This document shows positions 5,714-64,000 of a stretch of DNA of 64,000 nucleotides, piece after piece; the stretch's first letter is position 1; each line of letters begins with the position of its first letter. The position numbers were made by a program, and so were the translations under genes. The notes below the pieces were generated by a model that did no database searches, had not been told where the DNA came from, and saw only the letters and a list, made by a program, of their open reading frames with translations. This stretch comes from Aquificaceae bacterium (GTDB taxonomy: Bacteria > Aquificota > Aquificia > Aquificales > Aquificaceae), in the NCBI GenBank assembly GCA_037925075.1, contig JAXSNR010000002.1, positions 160,001 through 224,000 on the forward strand, in the 5' to 3' direction.

Positions 5714-8228
5714 TGTTTTTCTCTTGGTGGCTCTTGCCCTTGCCCAGCAGATAAGCAAGGAGTTTAACATAGATGTGGAGCTTACAAGCAAAATCTATGA
5801 AGAAAAGCCAAGGCTCATGCCTCCAGAAAGGATTCCTATGCCCGTAGTAAAAGAGCTTGACCTATCCTCTGAACTTCTTGAACCTCCAAGGTTTATGGAG
5901 TTTGCTCCAGTCAAACCTGTGGAAAAGGCTGGTGGTGTAAGCTGTGGAGAGCCAAAGGACGCCTTATCTTACAGGCTTGGGGTAGACTACTACCTTAAAG
6001 GTAAATACTCCCAAGCGGAGGAAGAGCTCTCAAAGGTTATCCTGATTGCCAACTCTCCCTTTAAGCCCATGGCGGAGTATGTACTGGGGATTATGGCTTA
6101 CAATAAGGCTCAAAGCGATAAAGCTCTTGAGCTTTTTAAGAGTTCATGCCAGTTTTCCCATATGTACCAAAAGCCCGCCTGCGAGGCTTACTATGGCTTG
6201 CACTTTATTCTAAGGGGATCCATACCTGAAAACAAGGATGGGCTTTGGCAAGCGGTGAAGAGTATAAAGGAGGGGAAGGTGCAAGAACCAGACTGTAAGG
6301 ATGCTGTCTTTTCCCAGTACTGTGTGTACGTGATGGACTTTGTAAAGGGAAAGGAAAACCTCCTTTACAAGGATAGTACCCTGCTTAGGTCTGCCATAGA
6401 GGGGTATTTTTCTGGAAACCTACACGATGCAAAAGGGATATTTTCCACCTACTCCACTCCGGGCAAGCCCTACAGAGACATAGCCCTTTATTACCTTGCC
6501 CTCATAGAATACAAGGAGAGTAAGGAAGATAAAGCCCTCAGGTACGCAAGCATATTGGAGAACCTAAATCCAAGGCTTGCGGGTGCACTCTACACCCTTA
6601 TATCCGAAAGGGATGCATATCTTTCAAGGCTTGCTTATACCCTTACAAAAAATCCTCACTTTTTGGAAAAGGCGGGCATAATTGCTTACAACGGAGGGGA
6701 TTATCCTCTTGCCCTTACCAATTTTCTTGAGGCAGGGAATATAAAATACGCGGTTTATTCTGCGGTCAGGATGGGGGACTACAAGAGGGTTATAAGCCTG
6801 TTAGAAAACAAAAAGGGCAAAGACAGGGAGGATTATATGTGGCTTCTTGAAGCCCTCTATTGGACTAACGGAGATATGAACCCTGTGCTTTCTGAAGTGA
6901 GGGGGCTATATCCTGACCTTGGCAGAGAGTTTACAGGGTGGGAAAGGTTCAGAGGTGGTGATTGGCTTGGAGCTCTGAGCTTTTTTGAAGACCCTTACTA
7001 CAAGGCTATAGCCCTTTACAACCTAAAAAGGTACAAGGGGGTCCTAAGCCTGCTTCAGGGGAGAACAGACCAGAGGTCAAGCCTCCTAAAGGCTCGCTCC
7101 GCCCTCATGATGGGGGATACAAAGCTGGCAAGAAGCTTTCTTACGGAAGGGTCAGACCAAGAGCTTTATCTTTTGGGAATGTCCTACTTTTTGGAGGGGA
7201 ATTACCAAAAGTCCATTTCCTTCTTCCAAAGGGTCTCAGACAAAAGCCCGCTTAAGCCAAAGGCTCTGTTAAGGATGGGTGATGCTTACTACAATGCGGG
7301 AGATGCGCAAAAGGCTAAGGAAAGCTACTATGAAGTTTTGCGCAGGCTTCCAGACAGTGAGGAGGCAAAGCAGGCGACACTTTCTCTCCTTGAGTTTTGG
7401 GGGAAGGGGGTCAGCGATGAGGAGATGGAAAGACTACTTTTGAGTTATATAGAAAGGGAAAAGAACCCACCACCCGAAATAATTTACCAGTATGCAAGCC
7501 TTTTGCAGAAAAAGAGAGACAAAGGAAGGGCAGAAAAGGAGTTTATCAAGCTTTTGGACACACCCCTGAAGTTCAAAGCCATTTTGAGGTTGGCGGAATT
7601 GGAGGAGGAAACCTCCAAAAAACTGGTGCTGTATTACAAGATATACAAGGAGGCGGAGCTCCAAGAGGATAGGATGAGAGCCAGGGAAGAACTTTTGAGG
7701 CTCTACACCTCATCGGGTGATACCAAAAGCCTTGCGGACATGCTTGCGGAAGGCGACAGCCAAGACAAGGTTAAAGCCTTAGGTCTTTATCTTGCGGTTG
7801 GTGATAAGGCTTCAGCCCTGTCCCTGTCTCGTAGCCTCATGAAAGAAAAATACAGAAGCGAAGAGTTTGAAAGATATCTCATAGACCTTTACAAGCATAC
7901 CCGGGAAACACCCTTGCTGGATTATGTGGTTGAAAGTCCCAATAAAAGCCTCAGTGGAGAAGCGCTTTTCCTTTTGGGACTTGATAGCCTCAAAAAGGGT
8001 GATAGGGAAAAGGCTCTGGAAAGTTTTGTGGATATATCCATCAACCACAAGGGAGAGCCTTACTACAATCAGGCAGTTTTAGAGGGTGCTAAAATACTTT
8101 TAGGCTTGGGAGCTAAGAAGGATGCAAGCTGTATGCTAGAGAGGCTTGACTTAAACAGTGCAAGCCCAGAGGATTTGGCTTTGTACAATAAGCTTAGACA
8201 GGGCTTACCAAGGTGTGAGGTGAGGTGA
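5688..8228 (+). CDS. Exported tetratricopeptide-repeat protein
   Basis: Signal peptide; repeated TPR-like helices (YLLGMSYF...ALLRMGDAYY). Confidence 0.8.
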   Translation: MWKPTRLFSVFLLVALALAQQISKEFNIDVELTSKIYEEKPRLMPPERIPMPVVKELDLSSELLEPPRFMEFAPVKPVEKAGGVSCGEPKDALSYRLGVDYYLKGKYSQAEEELSKVILIANSPFKPMAEYVLGIMAYNKAQSDKALELFKSSCQFSHMYQKPACEAYYGLHFILRGSIPENKDGLWQAVKSIKEGKVQEPDCKDAVFSQYCVYVMDFVKGKENLLYKDSTLLRSAIEGYFSGNLHDAKGIFSTYSTPGKPYRDIALYYLALIEYKESKEDKALRYASILENLNPRLAGALYTLISERDAYLSRLAYTLTKNPHFLEKAGIIAYNGGDYPLALTNFLEAGNIKYAVYSAVRMGDYKRVISLLENKKGKDREDYMWLLEALYWTNGDMNPVLSEVRGLYPDLGREFTGWERFRGGDWLGALSFFEDPYYKAIALYNLKRYKGVLSLLQGRTDQRSSLLKARSALMMGDTKLARSFLTEGSDQELYLLGMSYFLEGNYQKSISFFQRVSDKSPLKPKALLRMGDAYYNAGDAQKAKESYYEVLRRLPDSEEAKQATLSLLEFWGKGVSDEEMERLLLSYIEREKNPPPEIIYQYASLLQKKRDKGRAEKEFIKLLDTPLKFKAILRLAELEEETSKKLVLYYKIYKEAELQEDRMRAREELLRLYTSSGDTKSLADMLAEGDSQDKVKALGLYLAVGDKASALSLSRSLMKEKYRSEEFERYLIDLYKHTRETPLLDYVVESPNKSLSGEALFLLGLDSLKKGDREKALESFVDISINHKGEPYYNQAVLEGAKILLGLGAKKDASCMLERLDLNSASPEDLALYNKLRQGLPRCEVR

Positions 8229-9949: not shown

Positions 9950-10918
9950 TCCTTCTTTCTCAAGCCCTTCCCTTATGGCGGTGATGAGTTTTTCCATGGC
10001 GGATTGATAACTTTTGGCCCTTATCTTACATCCTGACGCATACTTATGACCTCCACCGCCAAGACTTTCTGCTATCTTTGACACGTCCGCATGGCCCTTA
10101 GACCTAAGAGATACCTTCCAGACCTCCTCATCGGGTTTTTCTATGATGGCAAAGGCTACCTCTACACCTTCAATGGACCTTGGGTAGTTTACAAGCCCTT
10201 CACTGTCGGAATATTCACAGCCCGTCTCTTTGAAGAAACTGTCAAATATGGTTATACCCGCAACAAGCCCATCTTCATAAAGGGACAGAGTATCAAGCAC
10301 CTTTGATATCAACTTCATCTTGTTTAGACTTTCTCTCTCTGCAAAGTTTACATAAGTCCAGTGAGGCTTAGCTCCCAACTCTACAAGCTCCTTCGCAAGC
10401 TGGAAGCTTTCTACGGTTGTGTTGGAATACTTAAAAAAGCCTGTGTCTGTGGCGAGTCCAGCGTATAGGTTTTCCGCTATATCCTTGTCTATGGCGGACC
10501 TGTCCCACACACAAAGAAGCCTGTATATAAGGGCAGTTGTAGAGGGGGCGTCTGGGTCTATGTAGTCATATTCTCCATAGAACTCTCCACCCAAGTGATG
10601 GTCTATTCTGGCTCTTTTGATAGCCTTTACTTCCGCGTTTACCCTATAAAAACCGCTGGCATCGACCACTATGGCAAGACTGAAAACCTCATCAACGGGC
10701 AGTTTAACCATCTCTTCAGAGCCCGGTAAAAAGTCAAGGAAATGGGGCACCTTGTCTTTGCATCCCACTACCACCCTCTTGCCCTTTTTCTTGAGGAAAA
10801 GATACAGAGCAAGGGCACTTCCCAAGGTATCTGCATCTGGGTTCTCATGACTGGCTATGAGTATGGAGCCTTCTTCTCTTTTTAGAAGCTCTATAAGGGG
10901 TATGCTCTGCTCCAGCAT
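9917..10918 (-). CDS. nrnA: DHH family phosphoesterase (NrnA-like nanoRNase/pAp phosphatase)
   Basis: HENPDAD, IDHH, TDTGFF, SLRS, GGGGHKYASG. Confidence 0.85.
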   Translation of the reverse strand: MLEQSIPLIELLKREEGSILIASHENPDADTLGSALALYLFLKKKGKRVVVGCKDKVPHFLDFLPGSEEMVKLPVDEVFSLAIVVDASGFYRVNAEVKAIKRARIDHHLGGEFYGEYDYIDPDAPSTTALIYRLLCVWDRSAIDKDIAENLYAGLATDTGFFKYSNTTVESFQLAKELVELGAKPHWTYVNFAERESLNKMKLISKVLDTLSLYEDGLVAGITIFDSFFKETGCEYSDSEGLVNYPRSIEGVEVAFAIIEKPDEEVWKVSLRSKGHADVSKIAESLGGGGHKYASGCKIRAKSYQSAMEKLITAIREGLEKEGLIKHAVSHKA

Positions 10919-10940
10919 GGTTGCCCTCCTGTGTTAAAGT

Positions 10941-13700
10941 TTATACCTCCTGAAGCACTCCTGCACACCTTTTGCAAACCTCTCCTTGAAATTCTCTCTC
11001 AGGGTAATAGAGCCAGCATCTGGGACACTTTTTCCCCTCCACACGGGACACACCTATAATAACACCCCTTACCGATTCGCCTTGTATCACATACTGACCA
11101 CCCTCTGAAAAGCTGACCCCACTCACAGTGAAGAAGTACTTTAGGTAGTCCTCATACCTTCTTGCCACCTGTAAGCCTTCCCCCCACAGAAACACCTGGG
11201 CTTCATAAGGGTGATTTATCGCCTTTTCCCTTCTGGCTAATTCTATTGCCTTCATCACATCTTCTCTTAGGTCCATAAGGTGCTGGTAGTCTTTTAGAAG
11301 CTCTTCATCCATCATCTCCCTTCTGTACGGAGGTATTTGGTGCATAAAGACGCTTTCTGGAAGTTCTGGGTTTATCCTTCTCAGATGCTCCCAAGCCTCC
11401 TCCGCGGTAAAGCTAAGAATAGGTGCTATTGATGTGATAAGGGCTTCCGCTAAGGCATAGAGGGCTGTTTGGGCGGACCTTCTCTCCCAGCTGTTTGGGG
11501 CATAAACGTAGAGCCTGTCCTTTAGAACATCAAGGTAAAGGCTTGAAAGCTCCACGGAGCAGAAGTTTCTTATAAGATGGTAAACCCTATGAAAGGCGTA
11601 CTCTTGGTAGTGTCTGTGGACCTCCTGAAGGACCCCCTGAAGATAGGAAAGCATCCAACGGTCAAAGTGATGAAGGTCCTCGTAAGGCACCGCCTTTGAG
11701 GGCTCAAAGTCGTAGAGGTTTCCCAGTAGAAACCTTATGGTGTTTCTTATCTTCTTGTAGTCTTCCACAAGCCTTTGAAGGATACCCTTTCCAAGGCGTA
11801 CATCTTCCGTGTAGTCCTCGGAGGCGACCCAAAGCCTTAGTATGTCCGCACCGTACTGGTTTATTATCTCTTGGGGTGAGACCACATTTCCGAGGGACTT
11901 GGACATCTTCCTACCCTTTTCATCCACTGTAAAGCCGTGGGTGAGCACGGTCTTGTAGGGAGCTTCTCCGTAGCTGGCAATGGATTCAAGCAAAGACGCC
12001 TGAAACCATCCCCTATGCTGGTCTGAACCCTCAAGGTAGAGGTCTGCCTTTTGTATGCCTCTTTTCCTCAAAACATGTGCATGGGAAGAGCCAGAGTCAA
12101 ACCACACATCCAGAATGTCCTCTTCTTTGATAAACTCCTCTGAGCCACAGGCGGGGCATCTGTAGCCCTCTGGAAGCAATTCTTTTGGAGACTTTTCAAA
12201 CCAAAGGTCTGCACCCTTTGGCGACTCCTCTACCATCTTGGCAACCCTTTCAAAGACCTCCCAGTGGGAAACCACATGCCCACATTTTTTACAGTAAAAG
12301 ACCGTTATGGGCACTCCCCAAAACCTTTGGCGAGATATACACCAATCTGGCCTGCCTTCAAGCATGGACGCTATTCGGTTTTTCCCGTAGGGAGGTACCC
12401 ACTGGACCTTTTCTATTTCCTCAAGGCACCTTTCCCTGAGGCTTTTGCCCTCCACTTGACCCGACATGCTTATAAACCACTGTTGGGTTGCCCTGAATAT
12501 GACGGGGTTTTTACATCTCCAGCAGTGGGGGTAGGAGTGCCTGATTTTGCCCTCCCACAGCAAAAGCCCTCTGGACCTCAGGTCTTCCACTATGAGGGGG
12601 TTTGCTTCAAAAACCCTCTTGCCTCTTATAAACTCTGGTGCCTCTTGGGTGAACCTTCCCTCATCGTCAATGGGTGCAAAGGGTTCAAGCCCGTACCTTA
12701 TGCCTACAAGGTAATCTTCTCGTCCATGACCCGGTGCCATATGCACAAGACCCGTTCCCGTGGAAAGCTCCACAAATTCAGAGGGATAAACCTTGTTTAT
12801 CCTATTCCCGTAGGGAGCCATATATTCAAGGCCCACAAGTTTCGAGCCCCTGACCTCCCTTATCACCTGTCCCTCCATACCCGTAAAACCTTTGACCGAT
12901 TCCAAAAGGTCCTTTGCCAGCACATAGGTCTCCTCTCCAGACTTGAAGAAGAGGTACTGATAGTTCTCTCCTACCATAACGCCGAGGTTGGCGGGCAGGG
13001 TCCACGGAGTGGTGGTCCATATGAGCAGGTAGGTCTTTGGCTGGCCCTTCAGTGGAAGCTTTACATAAATGCTTGGGTCTTCTCTTTCTTGGTATTCCAC
13101 CTCCGCTTCAGCCTCTGCGGTCTTGTCGTATATGCACCAGTAGACGGGCTTTTTGCTTCTGACCGCCAAGCCCTTGCTGAAAACCCTCCCAAGCTCTCTC
13201 ACCTCCTGAGCCTGATAGAGGGGGTCCATGGTTATGTAAGGGTTTTCCCAGTCCGCAAGGACGCCAAGACGAATAAACTCCTCCTTCTGCACCCCTATGA
13301 ACCTCTCCGCATAGGACCTACAAAGCCTTCTAAACTCCACCTTGCCAAGCTGTTCCTTTGAGACCTTCTTTTCCTTGAGTTCCTTCTCCACCTGCTGTTC
13401 TATGGGAAGTCCATGACAGTCCCAGCCCGGCACAAAATCCACATCATAACCCGTCAGAAGCCTGTGCTTGACTATGATGTCCTTAAGGACCTTGTTAAGA
13501 GCATGCCCTATGTGAATGTGTCCGTTGGCATAGGGTGGTCCATCATGTAATACAAAGAGGGGTTTTCCTCTGTTTTTTTCTCTTAGCCTTTTGTAAAGCC
13601 CCTGCCACCTTTGAAGTATTTCAGGCTCCCTTTCGGGAAGGTTTGCCTTCATAGGGAAGTCCGTTTTTGGAAGGTTCAAGGTTTCCGCGTAGTTTCGCAT
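10941..13700 (-). CDS. ileS: Isoleucine--tRNA ligase (type 1)
   Basis: [29 protein letters not shown]-terminal Zn finger CPRCW..CKRC. Confidence 0.98.
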
Positions 13701-58905: not shown

Positions 58906-59925
58906 GTGAGGGTACTTTTGCTTACAGAAGGCTCATCCACAGTAGGGCATGGACATATAACAAGATGTTTGTCTTTATATCAAGCCTTTGAGCTTTTGGG
59001 ACATGAGCCGATTATGATGGTTGCGGGGGACCATTCTGTAAGGGGCATTTTGGAAGGGAAAAACTATGTAATCTTTGACTGGCACAAGGGATGGAAAGAG
59101 GTCCTCAAAAAGCTTAAAGACTACCATGCGGTGGTGGTAGATTCTTACATGGCAAGAGAAGAGATATACGAAGATATAAGTCAAGTTGTGAGTTCAAAGC
59201 TTTACATAGATGATTACAAAAGAATAGACTATCCTTCTGGAGTTGTTTTAAACGGCAGTATATACGCCTACGAGCTTGACTATCCGAAAAAGGAAGGTGT
59301 TAGATACTTTCTTGGACCCAAATATGTACCTCTCAGGAGTGCCTTTTGGAAGGTGGGCAGAAAAAGGATAAGGAAAAGACCTAAGCGTATTCTCATAACC
59401 TTTGGTGGAGATGATTTAAGGAATATGACACCAAAGGTACTTAGCTTGCTTAAAGAAAACTTTATCGGGCTTGAGTTTCTGGTGGTTGTAGGAAAGGGCT
59501 TTAATAACCGTGAGCTTATACTAAGCATGGCGGACGCAAGGACAAAAATCTTTGAAGGGCTTACCGCAGAAGGTATGAGAGACCTTATGCTTTATGCGGA
59601 TATGGCAATAAGTGCAGGCGGGCAGACTACCTACGAACTTGCAAGGGTTGGCACTCCCGCAGTCCTTGTGGCGGTTGCGGAAAATCAGCTTCTAAACTGT
59701 AAGGGATGGGAAAAGGCGGGCTTTGCCATCTACGCGGGCTGGTGGGAAGAGGGAAAACTCTTTGAAAAAATACTTACCTACACGGAAAGGCTGGTGGATT
59801 TTGAGCTAAGAAACGCCATGAGCAAAAAAGGGAAAAAGCTTGTAGACGGACAAGGTGCAAAAAGAGTTGTAAAGGAGCTTACCCTTTCAAAGAAACCTCT
59901 CCCTTTATCATACCCATTACAATAA
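58906..59925 (+). CDS. pseG: UDP-2,4-diacetamido-2,4,6-trideoxy-beta-L-altropyranose hydrolase (PseG-like)
   Basis: [38 protein letters not shown]. Confidence 0.8.
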
Positions 59926-60979
59926 TATCCTTCCACCTTCCATCCTTAAAAACAAACTCTCTGAGCCTACCCTCTTCCTTAAAGCCCATACGTTTGTAAA
60001 GGTCTATAGCTCTTTGATTATCTTCTATAACTTCAAGCTTTAAGGTGTGCAATTTTGCCACCTCAAAGGCAAGTATTATGATGGATTTTCCAAGAGTGAG
60101 ACCTGTAAAAGGAATTTTTTCTTCTGGGTTGGCATACATACCAAAATATGCGTTAAGGTTGCGAAAATCCACCCTGTTTAAGTATAAGACACCTATGGGT
60201 TTTCCCTCTTTGTATACCAGATAATAAAAATCCCTTCTGTTGTGCTTTAAACTCTCTATAAAATTCCTGTGCTCCTCCTCAGTTATCTCATGGTCTGTAT
60301 ACATCCATTTTCTAACCTCAGGATGGTTCCTCCATCTTCTTACCATATTTATCTCTTCTTCCTTCAGGTTCACAAAGTTTTTGAGTAGCACGCTTCCAAG
60401 CTCTATATTTCTCTTTAAGCTCTCTGATGGGTGTATCCCATCCCTTTTCTCTGATAAAGGGTTCAAAGATGTGGTATTCTCGTTTGTAGTGTCTTGACCC
60501 CCCCCGTGTTGCCTAAATGGCTTGATTTCCATATTTTTTATTTTATCCCAGTTTTCTTTAAACAGCCTTTGAATTTCCTCGTGAAGTTTCAGATAGGAAC
60601 TTCTTAAAGTTTCCTTCTCCTCGTCTATAAAAACCTCCTTCTGTAAGAGTATGGGACCCGTATCCACGCCCTCATCTACAATATGAATGGAAACGCCCTT
60701 TGGTGTATCCTCCAAAAAGCTCCACACATTGGGATAATACCCCTTGTTGTAAGGAAGAAAGGATATGTGAAGATTTATTATCCTTGGGTAGTAAGACCTT
60801 ACCACTTCCTTTGGTATTATGTGCTTGTAGTTGTAGCTAACTATAAACTCTGGGTCTATTGTTCTTACAAATTCTAAGTCTATCCTTTCTTCGGTGTATA
60901 TGACTTCCTCACCCACACCTTTTAAAAATTCAACCAGCCTTAGGCTCAGTTCATTACCACCAAGAAATAGGATTTTCAT
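59879..60979 (-). CDS. pseH: Sugar N-formyltransferase fused via G8 tract to PseH-like GNAT N-acetyltransferase
   Basis: N-half INLHISFLP, GVSIH..DEGVDTG; C-half LKNFVNL..WRNHPEVRKWMY..EHRNFI..N.RAI.LY..GF. Confidence 0.85.
   Translation of the reverse strand: MKILFLGGNELSLRLVEFLKGVGEEVIYTEERIDLEFVRTIDPEFIVSYNYKHIIPKEVVRSYYPRIINLHISFLPYNKGYYPNVWSFLEDTPKGVSIHIVDEGVDTGPILLQKEVFIDEEKETLRSSYLKLHEEIQRLFKENWDKIKNMEIKPFRQHGGGQDTTNENTTSLNPLSEKRDGIHPSESLKRNIELGSVLLKNFVNLKEEEINMVRRWRNHPEVRKWMYTDHEITEEEHRNFIESLKHNRRDFYYLVYKEGKPIGVLYLNRVDFRNLNAYFGMYANPEEKIPFTGLTLGKSIIILAFEVAKLHTLKLEVIEDNQRAIDLYKRMGFKEEGRLREFVFKDGRWKDIIVMGMIKGEVSLKG
60498..60505 (-). repeat. G8 homopolymer (C8 on plus) at the formyltransferase/PseH junction
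   Basis: Plus strand ...CTTGA CCCCCCCC GTGTTG... Confidence 0.95.
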
Positions 60980-61662
60980 GTTATTTTCCTAACGAGCTTA
61001 AAAGCTTCTGCATAATCAACACCTACCTGCATTCCTCTTAACCTTGCCAAATACTCTACACCTTCTACAGACCTTGGATGTGGATATGTCCTTAACTCAC
61101 TTTTATAGCAACTTAGAGCCTCAATTTTTTTCTTAATATGCTCCTCGGAAAGTACAAAATAAGTGTTTGGTTGGAAGCTTAGAGGATAGTTCCATTCGGT
61201 GGAAGACAATACTTCGCATGAATATATCTCCTTAACAGGGCTTAATGGTTGAGGTCTTGTAGCAGTCAATACAGCTCTATATGTTATCTGATGATCTATA
61301 TTGAGATCTTCTTTGTGGTGTGTGAATATAACTTTTGGACTTAACTCATTTATAACCTTCTCAAGAACCTTGATAATATCAAGTAAAGGCACAGTGTCAA
61401 ATCTATTATCTGGAAAATCATATAGGAAAACTCTTTTTACGCCTAGTATTTTATTGGCTTCAATTGCTTTTTCTTTTATTTCCCTAAGTTCTTTTTCTCT
61501 TAGTTTAGGGTTCCTTTTTTCATCTCTTGAAGTAATACCTTCACCAAGTATAACAGTATATACATCAAAACCTTCCTCTGAAAACCTTTTCACGGTTCCA
61601 CCGCAAGCTAACACCTCGTCATCTGGATGAGCAAAAACAAGTAAGACTGTATCGTTTTTCAC
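60976..61662 (-). CDS. PIG-L/LmbE family N-deacetylase
   Basis: AHPDDEVLACGG, DLNIDH, YKSEL..HPRS, AEAF; GTG 61662 (GTGA overlap) or ATG 61680. Confidence 0.9.
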   Translation of the reverse strand: MKNDTVLLVFAHPDDEVLACGGTVKRFSEEGFDVYTVILGEGITSRDEKRNPKLREKELREIKEKAIEANKILGVKRVFLYDFPDNRFDTVPLLDIIKVLEKVINELSPKVIFTHHKEDLNIDHQITYRAVLTATRPQPLSPVKEIYSCEVLSSTEWNYPLSFQPNTYFVLSEEHIKKKIEALSCYKSELRTYPHPRSVEGVEYLARLRGMQVGVDYAEAFKLVRKIT

Positions 61663-62384
61663 TCTTCTTTTAATGACCATTTTTTAAAAATCATTTCCCT
61701 TGTTTTGTCATATCCAATATTGAAAAGAGTATCAAAAAAGCACAACCAAGGCACAAACTCTTTAGCACCTTTTTGTGGATAAGTCAATATTTCCGGATCG
61801 TGAAATAAAACCTTTATGCCCCTAGCTTCGAAGTATTCTTTTACACCATATACTCTGCCATTGCTTCCAGAGACATAAATACCGCCTCCTACCGCTTTCA
61901 TTATATTGTATAAATTTTCCACGCCCTTGGAATTGGGTATATTTAAATCTGTAGCTTTAACAATCTTATCCCTTATGTTAATGCCAAACATATCACACGC
62001 ATTCAAAATCGTGTGAATAATCGTCTCCGCATAATTGTATCTTGTTTTTTCTAAAACATTCTCCACATCTTTGTAGTATAGTTCTATATAACCCTCGTCA
62101 AAGTAGTCATGCTTTTTATATGCCTCTCGTAAGATATTTTTGTGTTTACTTACCCACTCGCTTCCTGCAATTACTGTGTCATATATTAAACTCCTACTAC
62201 TTGAAGCCACTGGTATAGTCAACCATTGTATTTTGCCGTTGTTGAGGATTCTATTTCTATTTTCCACTCCTCTTGCTTGCCTTTGAACGTTGTCTAGGAA
62301 AACAAACAAATTTGCATTACACAGCCTTTGGAAGTATCCGATAATAGGCAAGTATCTTGGTTGACTTATGACTACCGTTTTCAT
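61659..62384 (-). CDS. WbqC family protein
   Basis: SQPRYLP..GYF, FVFLDNVQ, NRNRI, WLTIPV, YPQ..F.P.L..FD.LFN; ATG 62384 (ATGA overlap). Confidence 0.88.
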   Translation of the reverse strand: MKTVVISQPRYLPIIGYFQRLCNANLFVFLDNVQRQARGVENRNRILNNGKIQWLTIPVASSSRSLIYDTVIAGSEWVSKHKNILREAYKKHDYFDEGYIELYYKDVENVLEKTRYNYAETIIHTILNACDMFGINIRDKIVKATDLNIPNSKGVENLYNIMKAVGGGIYVSGSNGRVYGVKEYFEARGIKVLFHDPEILTYPQKGAKEFVPWLCFFDTLFNIGYDKTREMIFKKWSLKEE

Positions 62385-63049
62385 ATTTTTCTGCATATAA
62401 CTTCCCATTCCGCATGTACTTCTCCGGTGATATGACTTTTTATCATTATTTCTTTAATATCAATTATGTCAAAGCCTTCAAGTGTATGTTTTAATTCTTC
62501 TATACCATAGAAATAAACATATCCTGTTCCTGCAATAGGGCCGCTTTCAGTTAACGCATACCTTTCATTTACTTTGTTTTTAGAAGTTATATAAGAAGTA
62601 TGGAATATAGAGTATGGATTGAAAAAGAAATATCCACCTCTTTTAAGGACTCGGTATACTTCTTTTATAACTCTCTTTGCCTCCTCATAATCCACGCATG
62701 TGATAGACCCTCTGTCAAAAACCAAGTCAAAACTCTCATCCTCGTAGGGCAGGCTTTCAGTAAAATCTCCTACCCTCAAGTCGCCCCTGACCCCAAACCT
62801 TTCAAATATACCTTTGGCCATCTCTATGGCTGTTTGACTACCATCTATGCCATACACGTTAAAACCCTCGAGAGCAAGAGCCCATAGGTTATTACCTGCA
62901 CCACAACCCACTTCAAGGATGCGAATATCTTTTCTTTCCCTATCCTTCGGATGATAACGCATAACGAAGCTGATGATCTTATCGTAGGGATATCTGGCGG
63001 TTTGAACTCCCTTTTTCCTCAAGTCTTCCCATAAGGTTTGAAAACTCAT
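62381..63049 (-). CDS. Class I SAM-dependent methyltransferase
   Basis: ILEVGCGAGNN, GIDGS, FDLVFD, VLKRGG. Confidence 0.9.
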   Translation of the reverse strand: MSFQTLWEDLRKKGVQTARYPYDKIISFVMRYHPKDRERKDIRILEVGCGAGNNLWALALEGFNVYGIDGSQTAIEMAKGIFERFGVRGDLRVGDFTESLPYEDESFDLVFDRGSITCVDYEEAKRVIKEVYRVLKRGGYFFFNPYSIFHTSYITSKNKVNERYALTESGPIAGTGYVYFYGIEELKHTLEGFDIIDIKEIMIKSHITGEVHAEWEVICRKI

Positions 63050-64000
63050 AGCACGACCTCCAAAAAACTTATTCCACTTGTATGAAAACTCTCCAGTTTT
63101 CTCTCATATTCACTAACTCCATGTCTGAAGTTTGTTCCAGAGTAGTATACAAACATTTTATCATACTTTGCCAGTGGCTCGTTTGCAGTGGTTATCATTC
63201 CACTATCCCACTCTCCTTCCTTTCCAAGGGGTATAATCGGTTCTTCAGAGACAAGCTCCCACTTTATGCAGTCTTTGCTGTACGCTAAATAAACCTCTAT
63301 CTTGCCCTCATGGGTGCCCTTTTGAATCTCATAGTCTATCATAAAAAGCCAAAGAAAGCCAAGATAGTGGTCTTTGTAGTTAAAGGGGCACAAGCCATAA
63401 AAGTCAGACCACTTAAAGCCTTTTTCTTGGGCTATTCTGTCTTCTTTTTCTGATGGTATCCATAGGGTTTTTGGCTTGCTCCAGTTTATAAAATCCTTGC
63501 TTATTGACATGCCAACGCAACGTCTTGTTCTTCCTTGCTTGTCTATCTTGTAAGTTTTTACCATGGCTCTGTAAACTTTCTTTCTTTTGTCATAAAACAC
63601 CGGTGCCACATCGCTGTACCATACCTTTCTTGTCCTTTTGTTTGGGAATTTAAGCAAGGGTATAACCGGATTATCTTTGTATTCCTCAAAGTTTATTCCA
63701 TCCTTTGAGAAAGCTACGCAGTATCCCTTGTCCGTGTAGCCAAATAGTTTGTAGGGGTACTCGTCTTCTGGTCTGTATATAACAGAGGGTATATGATAGT
63801 TTGCCACCACATTGCTCATGCATTCAAGGGACTGGGTTTTGTGGTAAAAGTCCAAAATCTTACCTTCTACCTCCACGGTTGGGTATAGATGTGCCACCGA
63901 TTCCTTCAAGGGTTTTATTAAAGGCTTTTTCCAGTTTATGCCATCCTCTGATTCCGCAAGGCACACAAAAAACCCAATACCATCCACATAGCTCTGGTAA
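63046..64000 (-). CDS. Five-bladed beta-propeller glycoside-hydrolase-like protein, 5' end outside window
   Basis: Repeated Asp-boxes SEDGINW, SKDGINF, SKDFINW, SKDCIKW; GEWD; frame open to the window edge. Confidence 0.7.
   Translation of the reverse strand, partial: YQSYVDGIGFFVCLAESEDGINWKKPLIKPLKESVAHLYPTVEVEGKILDFYHKTQSLECMSNVVANYHIPSVIYRPEDEYPYKLFGYTDKGYCVAFSKDGINFEEYKDNPVIPLLKFPNKRTRKVWYSDVAPVFYDKRKKVYRAMVKTYKIDKQGRTRRCVGMSISKDFINWSKPKTLWIPSEKEDRIAQEKGFKWSDFYGLCPFNYKDHYLGFLWLFMIDYEIQKGTHEGKIEVYLAYSKDCIKWELVSEEPIIPLGKEGEWDSGMITTANEPLAKYDKMFVYYSGTNFRHGVSEYERKLESFHTSGISFLEVVL

Follow-up and report, generated by a model that had tools for sequence, protein, structure and literature searches.

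Why does a gene for a sugar formyltransferase continue, as assembled, into an acetyltransferase of the same pathway, and what is the role of a run of eight G residues inside the first enzyme? These questions are raised by a 366-aa open reading frame (60979-59879) in the window, by which we mean the whole stretch of 64,000 nucleotides of Aquificaceae DNA that was analysed. The G8 run occupies codons 159-161 of this frame. An earlier note, made from the sequence alone, had read the run as a three-state device of a thermophile that sets N-formylation versus N-acetylation of a surface sugar, and had set out that one additional G (G9) gives a shorter product in another frame and that G7 or G10 leads to a stop soon after the tract. 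Re-translation confirmed all of these frames (Table 1). The findings described below suggest that cells probably flip their surface-sugar chemistry through the length of this G run.

The locus, its two enzymes and the three reading frames

The run lies within a pseJ-type formyltransferase gene that is part of a flagellin/pseudaminic-acid cluster. The start ATG of pseJ overlaps the stop of the upstream PIG-L gene, and the pseJ-PseH gene is the last one of the minus-strand cluster, its closest named homologues being from Aquificaceae. Beyond the window, the cluster includes a cytidylyltransferase-aminotransferase, a second GNAT, pseC/pseB/pseI-like ORFs, a Maf glycosyltransferase and flagellin, where it should be noted that the PseB, PseC and PseI families were scored on the sister loci L193 and L194 and not on the window's own locus. 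This gene context (flagellin, Maf and pse genes) points to a surface structure as the likely target. A convergent pseG is also found in L192, L193 and L194, and L191 carries, beside its second GNAT (10800-11303), a short remnant in the pse cluster (11364-11753) that we presume, from reading the sequence by eye, to be hisF-like. A scan for promoters and terminators gave numbers at chance level (5 versus 3.8 expected, and 3 versus 1.8).

Table 1. Features of the switch locus, in positions of the window.
Feature	Position	Strand	Evidence
Upstream cluster genes: PIG-L deacetylase, WbqC, methyltransferase, hydrolase-like ORF	60976..63987	-	
Shared N-terminal part of pseJ-type formyltransferase, codons 1-158	60506..60979	-	PF00551, invariant alignment columns, PseJ 6CI2 match
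G8 run, switch site	60498..60505	-	Sequence; gap-free bridging in X1, X2, X5; G7-G10 in 18/166 homologous loci
Frame A (G9): PseJ C-terminal tail	60318..60497	-	Stop 60320-60318; 220-aa product
Frame B (G8, as assembled): dual-coded linker into PseH N-terminus	60405..60496	-	Stop-creating codons avoided
Frame C (G7/G10): 10 codons then stop (60465), null state	60463..60495	-	Products 171/172 aa
PseH N-acetyltransferase domain	59879..60418	-	TIGR03585 170 bits vs cut-off 93.1
Candidate internal starts in PseH frame: GTG 60391, ATG 60346	60344..60391	-	Presence in 4/14 and 11/14 loci
pseG-like hydrolase, convergent	58906..59925	+	TIGR03590 146 bits, just below cut-off 153.55; 47-nt overlap with PseH frame 3' end

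Both enzymes are identified by homology, the first as a PseJ formyltransferase and the second as a PseH acetyltransferase. The catalytic residues N69, H71 and D106 lie in the shared N-terminal part, in columns that are invariant in the alignments of fused and full-length proteins. P0024, a natural orthologue of the G9 type, matches the solved PseJ structure 6CI2 (E 3.5e-49) over residues 15-190 including the GGSYH...GWDTP tail, and its model fits 6CI4 to 1.5 A over 188 columns with 47% identity. The tail encoded in the second frame of the window (SRHYKREY...GWDTPIRELKEKY..., with a conserved core H164...GWDTPIRELKEKY at 60491-60405) is identical to that of P0024 in 35 of 45 positions. The GS.H...GWDTP tail to which the earlier note had likened this frame is therefore real, and the G9 product ends in a true PseJ C-terminus. 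By homology, the full-length state thus presents the PseJ features of fold, N-x-H and D catalytic residues, C-terminal tail and pse context. In 63 full-length homologues, the residues G161, H164, W181 and K189 reach a conservation of 90% or more, and a Pfam scan of the tail alone gave no match. The PseH part, which scores over the curated cut-off and shares the pse context, matches the solved PseH 4RI1 with an E-value of 1.2e-26 and is the only PseH over the cut-off in the genome. Past the run, the DNA is open for 59 codons in the G9 frame and for 205 codons in the G8 frame, in agreement with the earlier view that two meaningful frames, PseJ tail and PseH, leave the tract. The proposed choice between formyl and acetyl groups also gained support, since both enzymes act in the same pathway: PseJ, which takes its name from Pse5Ac7Fo synthesis, is reported to provide the formyl variant and PseF to accept both sugars (PMC11040635), and PseH is reported to transfer an acetyl group to the product of PseC (PMC5109656).

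We infer that the truncated formyltransferase borne by the fusion would be inactive. This view is supported by two observations, namely that 88 of 89 other fusion proteins inspected retain the tail in frame, and that the loop after the catalytic N-x-H (residues 75-90) is modelled with low confidence when the tail is lacking. In the AlphaFold model of the full-length protein this loop is ordered with scores above 90, while it has pLDDT values below 50 in the model of the fusion, as does the linker 159-181, the two models being based on alignments of different depth (63 versus 30 rows).

The G8 run itself is not an assembly error, a possibility that the earlier note had considered, because independent short-read contigs of three out of four runs from two studies (X1 at a depth of 52, X2 and X5) cross it with 0 gaps; X1 is possibly the window's own sample. 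The contig of run X3, with a depth of 3, stops exactly at the run (60505), as would be expected of a branch between G8 and G9, but the next 100 bases are uncovered, and we did not count this contig as evidence. No heterogeneity in tract length was seen in the assembled contigs, which were the only material examined and which drop rare variants. As is expected of a phase-variable tract, the run is over-long for its genome, being one of only two runs of 8 G/C in 1.6 Mb, and GGG GGG begins just 1 of 253 Gly-Gly-Gly triplets in long frames, where about 5 would be expected from codon use. The other run (G000:C1:540372-540379) lies in frame in an ORF that we take, by eye and not from a family search, to be glycerol-3-phosphate-dehydrogenase-like (gpsA-like), and its other frames close at once. 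At the window locus, encoding this tail protein with the codon use of the gene would leave the second frame open for 28 codons with a chance of 0.03.

Distribution of the tract and selection on the overlap

We examined 166 homologous loci, 6 of which came from a family search and 160 from searches with N-terminal DNA patterns. The longest G run at the switch site measured 7-10 in 18 loci and at most 5 in 148 loci, a G6 being found in none of them. Removal of four duplicates left 14 distinct tract loci. A GNAT was open in the +1 frame from the run in 17 of the 18 tract loci, the 18th (L123) being broken, and in 0 of the 148 tractless ones. Five tractless loci have a GNAT nearby in other arrangements; of the remaining ones, 141 had enough sequence to follow the +1 frame over 34 codons, and 14 of these had no stop in it. 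At the switch site, tractless homologues show an xGxG motif with mixed codons. Accordingly, orthologues retain the tract and both open frames, as the earlier note had required of its reading. The arrangement is no peculiarity of thermophiles: the tract loci are found in records from Aquificaceae, Thermosynechococcus, Ca. Brocadia, Nitrospiraceae, Ca. Geothermocultor and Ca. Altarchaeum, hence in several phyla and an archaeon, and those of the other phyla likewise sit among pse genes. The partners vary from close PseH over more distant PseH to a GNAT below the cut-off, the partner in L034 being a different GNAT that scores only 60 against TIGR03585. Searches around G092 (401 genomes), G093 (61), G094 (201) and G091 (132) yielded no new tract locus among the loci analysed; L196 came from 48 genomes around G090, and L197-L204 lie outside the analysis.

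Several related arrangements were observed. At the protein level, P0052 and P0073 have the same shifted linker, which here joins the formyltransferase N-domain to a SAM methyltransferase and not to a GNAT. True in-frame PseJ-GNAT fusions exist as well (P0014, P0043, P0071, L098 and L170), so some organisms make both activities at once. In P0014, from the same clade as the switch, the overlap segment is repeated after the complete tail, this time in the PseH frame, which looks like the result of a short duplication that made both activities permanent. L098 (6459-6640, in a Mucispirillum schaedleri record) is an in-frame PseJ-PseH fusion with a separate G9 after the complete tail; only the acetyltransferase would toggle in this case, which would represent a second poly-G design. 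In L078, a scaffold N gap (6430-6440) coincides exactly with the tract site, and the downstream +1-frame GNAT has its own ATG. Degenerate forms include L113 (636-800), with an interrupted tract and stops in the second frame, and L123 (4404-4500), where the tail is cut off and unrelated sequence follows instead, as is likewise seen in P0156, P0157 and P0160. In L006 (G064:C57:8490-8957), the PseH part is interrupted near its C-terminus, giving a 311-aa product with a stop inside the family match.

Selection was assessed on 14 loci, i.e. the 14 distinct tract loci minus L123 plus L196, of which 10 are in the fused and 4 in the full-length state. Among the I/L/V codon pairs of the tail, 0 of 44 were stop-creating, as compared to 198 of 366 in the N-termini of the same genes and 246 of 464 in 108 tractless tails. 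The full-length alleles alone, whose state does not imply openness of the second frame, gave 0 of 12. For individual loci, the chance of an open second frame was 0.03-0.13; the loci are kin, so that these counts do not represent independent trials, though they span phyla. The PseJ frame of the tail is also conserved in fused alleles. In nine fused alleles of equal spacing, tail differences are distributed as 228/175/449 over the PseJ-frame codon positions, and tail identity is 0.68 in the PseJ frame versus 0.45 in the linker frame, the former being close to the 0.70 measured for the last 60 codons of the N-domain as a control. Judged by these codon patterns, both frames are under selection, which implies that these lineages produce both proteins, at any rate some of the time.

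Changes of state and candidate mechanisms

Tract length differs between closely related alleles, another property expected of phase variation, although some of these differences may be sequencing errors. Identical N-domains of 155 residues occur in opposite states in the pairs P0025/P0172, P0044/P0139 and P0027/P0196, and P0025 consists of the L003 N-domain plus the L003 second-frame tail, letter for letter. It should be noted that such pairs and states known from single records may include errors in poly-G sequencing, and that the tail of P0196 looks to be of low quality. Clusters at 90% identity mix fused and split members, with tract changes of 1 and 3 bases within clusters. On a tree of 195 rows, from which rows with short or incomplete N-domains and P0187 were left out and for which labels were taken from our own profiles, the fused label changes 39 times, at least 13 of these changes being forced by well-supported branches. 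Products of the third frame are represented by four protein records (P0188, P0198, P0221 and P0222) and by 0 of 15 distinct DNA loci, where protein counts are shaped by the search windows and do not represent frequencies. Of the three states in the earlier note, two thus correspond to products and the third is a null state. In the Altarchaeum cluster, the fused state is shared by all seven full-length members, of which two are represented on 30 contigs each, and the tail frame is intact; no full-length PseJ was seen in this cluster.

The explanation that we favour, and consider somewhat more probable than not, is an either/or toggle by slipped-strand change of the DNA, through which one sugar amine would receive either a formyl or an acetyl group. 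Translation would begin once, at the pseJ ATG. With 3n G residues after codon 158 (G9), complete PseJ would be made, and little or no intact PseH, which would have no start of its own. With one G fewer (G8), PseJ would be deprived of the 45-residue tail needed to complete its active site, and a shift by one base would turn the same DNA into the linker that delivers PseH as a fusion. As the 4-amino group of the PseC product, a UDP-sugar, would be the acylation site of both PseJ and PseH, the flagellin glycan would carry N-formyl (Pse5Ac7Fo) or N-acetyl (Pse5Ac7Ac) depending on the allele, and the third tract length, giving neither enzyme, would be selected against. We infer that the run switches at some rate in living populations, that PseH is silent in the G9 state, that the sugar product changes as described, and that phage or surface recognition acts as the selective agent. 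DNA slippage is favoured by the opposite states of near-identical alleles, by the lack of conserved frameshift stimulators among our findings, and by the nature of the motif, since slipped-strand variation usually involves poly-G and transcriptional indels are found rather at A/T (PMC3711429). Several observations count against the toggle: the absence of visible tract heterogeneity in the contigs, the uniformly fused state in Altarchaeum, the true bifunctional fusions, the second GNAT in the cluster and the Shine-Dalgarno (SD) score of ATG 60346. Furthermore, the genome has MutS, and its other G8 lies in a housekeeping-type ORF, so that a G8 need not be highly mutable here.

A less likely explanation, and the main rival, is recoding, i.e. 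RNA polymerase stutter or a ribosomal -1 shift on G GGG GGN, by which each cell would make both enzymes and the DNA length would reset their ratio. Recoding accounts equally well for the selection on both frames. It is also consistent with the presence of MutS, with the stable fused state and intact tail frame over the Altarchaeum cluster, with the coexistence of both activities in true bifunctional fusions, and with the predominance of the fused state, seen in 10 of 12 tract rows from the pattern search though the ranking favoured full-length alleles. The slippery site (X XXY YYZ) is indeed present in the fused frame, yet this is a trivial consequence of any G run. Neither a conserved upstream SD-like element nor a conserved hairpin adjoining the run was found in the 14 loci, where folds near the run start about 25 nt downstream and have z-scores from -4.2 to +0.8. 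Moreover, a -1 ribosomal shift cannot yield PseH from the 4 full-length alleles, identical N-domains are found in opposite DNA states, and PMC3711429 places transcriptional indels mostly at A/T runs and lists poly-G/C under slipped-strand phase variation.

It appears doubtful that the run merely turns pseJ ON and OFF while an internal start supplies PseH whatever the tract length, in which case the fusion would be a harmless by-product and formylation would compete with constant acetylation. Such a start would most plausibly be ATG 60346, which the earlier note had overlooked: 11 of 14 loci have it four codons before the WRN motif, its SD score is -5.3 kcal/mol for the window and -6.3 for two full-length alleles, and gene callers annotate a PseH of 118-170 aa beside full-length PseJ. 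However, this ATG lies inside helix 1, and a product starting at M212 would lack two strands (192-194, 197-201) as well as half of the helix at 207-217, elements that align with the solved PseH structures 4RI1 and 4XPK. In addition, L056 and L124 have no such ATG. The other candidate, GTG 60391 (codon 197), lacks a convincing SD, as the earlier note had correctly remarked (-2.1 kcal/mol versus -3.3 to -10.0 at four neighbouring gene starts). It is a start codon in only 4 of 14 loci and absent from the other 10, most loci having GTT, GTA or TTT. The position of the H. pylori PseH Met is TTA (60418) in the window, and two pseH genes that stand alone in the same genus each possess an ATG, at a position some 15 codons before that of GTG 60391. 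On the basis of these codons, PseH in the switch loci appears to be without a conserved start of its own. An internal start would also give no reason for the avoidance of stops in the linker (0 of 44). The idea that the stand-alone pseH of L209 was derived from a linker was dropped, since comparison with L210 and 4RI1 identified the LRxNI segment as the native PseH N-terminus.

Decay of the locus, in which a frameshift at a Gly-rich motif would have inactivated pseJ and fused it to pseH by chance, leaving the G run as a by-product of glycine codons and the tail as a recent remnant, is very improbable. It would fit the PseJ-frame stop, which has moved downstream by 12-15 codons in five of the ten fused alleles but in none of the four full-length ones, and the broken forms L113 and L123. 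Yet, the tail of fused alleles is as conserved as the end of their N-domains, across phyla, tractless homologues encode xGxG with mixed codons, GGG GGG is avoided elsewhere in the genome, and the state has changed repeatedly on the tree. Homopolymers are error-prone in sequencing, and L078 has a gap at the tract site while some single-record states may be errors, but the notion that all genomes are truly G9 with two separate genes is almost certainly wrong, given the gap-free G8 in three runs, the fused proteins that are encoded on contigs as long as 1.7-1.8 Mb and that form clusters with up to 12 members, and an avoidance of second-frame stops that errors cannot produce.

Implications and comparison with known systems

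A broader view, to which we would give no more and no less than an even chance, is that of a portable either/or cassette, in which the dual-coded pseJ tail becomes, by a one-base slip, the translation leader for a competing modifier downstream. This cassette would have moved between Aquificota, cyanobacteria, planctomycetes, nitrospirae and an archaeon, with at least three types of GNAT and a SAM methyltransferase (P0052, P0073) as partners. If so, one nucleotide would pick formyl versus acetyl (or methyl) on a surface sugar, and exclusivity would be built into the genetic code of the overlap. About 30 codons would be required to work in two frames, providing a testable conserved dual-coding region in prokaryotes, and dozens of database 'formyltransferase-PseH fusions' would be misread as bifunctional enzymes. 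The findings further suggest that free-living thermophiles, groundwater bacteria and an archaeon possess contingency loci. Either mechanism would be of interest, be it phase variation with built-in exclusivity or poly-G recoding. In the open-access literature searched, supplements aside, we found no description of a formyltransferase-PseH frameshift switch or of dual-coding homopolymer phase variation, and within this literature the switch would represent a previously undescribed form of C-terminal phase variation. The repeat switches known so far control whether a gene is expressed, shorten its product or join it to a neighbour; here, an enzyme is apparently swapped for a competitor that acts on the same substrate.

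The folds of the two enzymes are those of PseJ of Anoxybacillus kamchatkensis (6CI2, 6CI4, 6EDK) and of PseH of H. pylori and C. jejuni (4RI1, 4XPK), where they are encoded by separate genes with their own starts. Programmed frameshifting or slippage is known from dnaX, where one start codon gives two products that differ C-terminally. The present locus likewise has one start and two C-terminal variants, but a G run takes the place of A/T, no conserved stimulators were found, and both states are fixed in different genomes.

Three phase-variable systems, as described in the accessible text of the respective reports, also resemble the locus. The poly-G tract in hsdS of NgoAV in Neisseria gonorrhoeae, like those of other repeat-bearing hsdS genes, is a mid-gene repeat that gives two active products and not an ON/OFF switch (PMC7383803). 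The products are full-length and truncated forms of a single protein, with no second frame that codes for a needed part, whereas the locus described here concerns two unrelated enzymes, a formyltransferase and a GNAT, and a dual-coded stretch. In Campylobacter jejuni, poly-G tracts in Cj1295, maf1 and maf7 likewise vary the pseudaminic-acid derivative on flagellin, there as ON/OFF switching of an added modification in a host-associated pathogen (PMC3068675, PMC6321876). In contrast to Cj1295, the present switch would exchange an acyl group at a core step of the pathway, in free-living microbes that have MutS. The nearest resemblance in design is to HCAN_0660/0661 of Helicobacter canadensis (Snyder et al. 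2010, PMC2823697), where the length of a late poly-G likewise determines whether separate or fused proteins are made, in a glycosylation-type cluster. The tract of the window is also late, with one frame that enters the next gene, as in C-terminal phase variation with fusion. In such systems the upstream protein stays essentially whole in all frames, whereas PseJ loses a 45-residue tail and presumably its activity. In the accessible part of that report, the partners are hypothetical proteins, one strain is described and selection is untested. In the case described here, the run lies inside the enzyme fold, so that fusion removes the tail of one enzyme and supplies the only good start of the other, and the codon patterns indicate selection on both frames in a design that is conserved across phyla and an archaeon.
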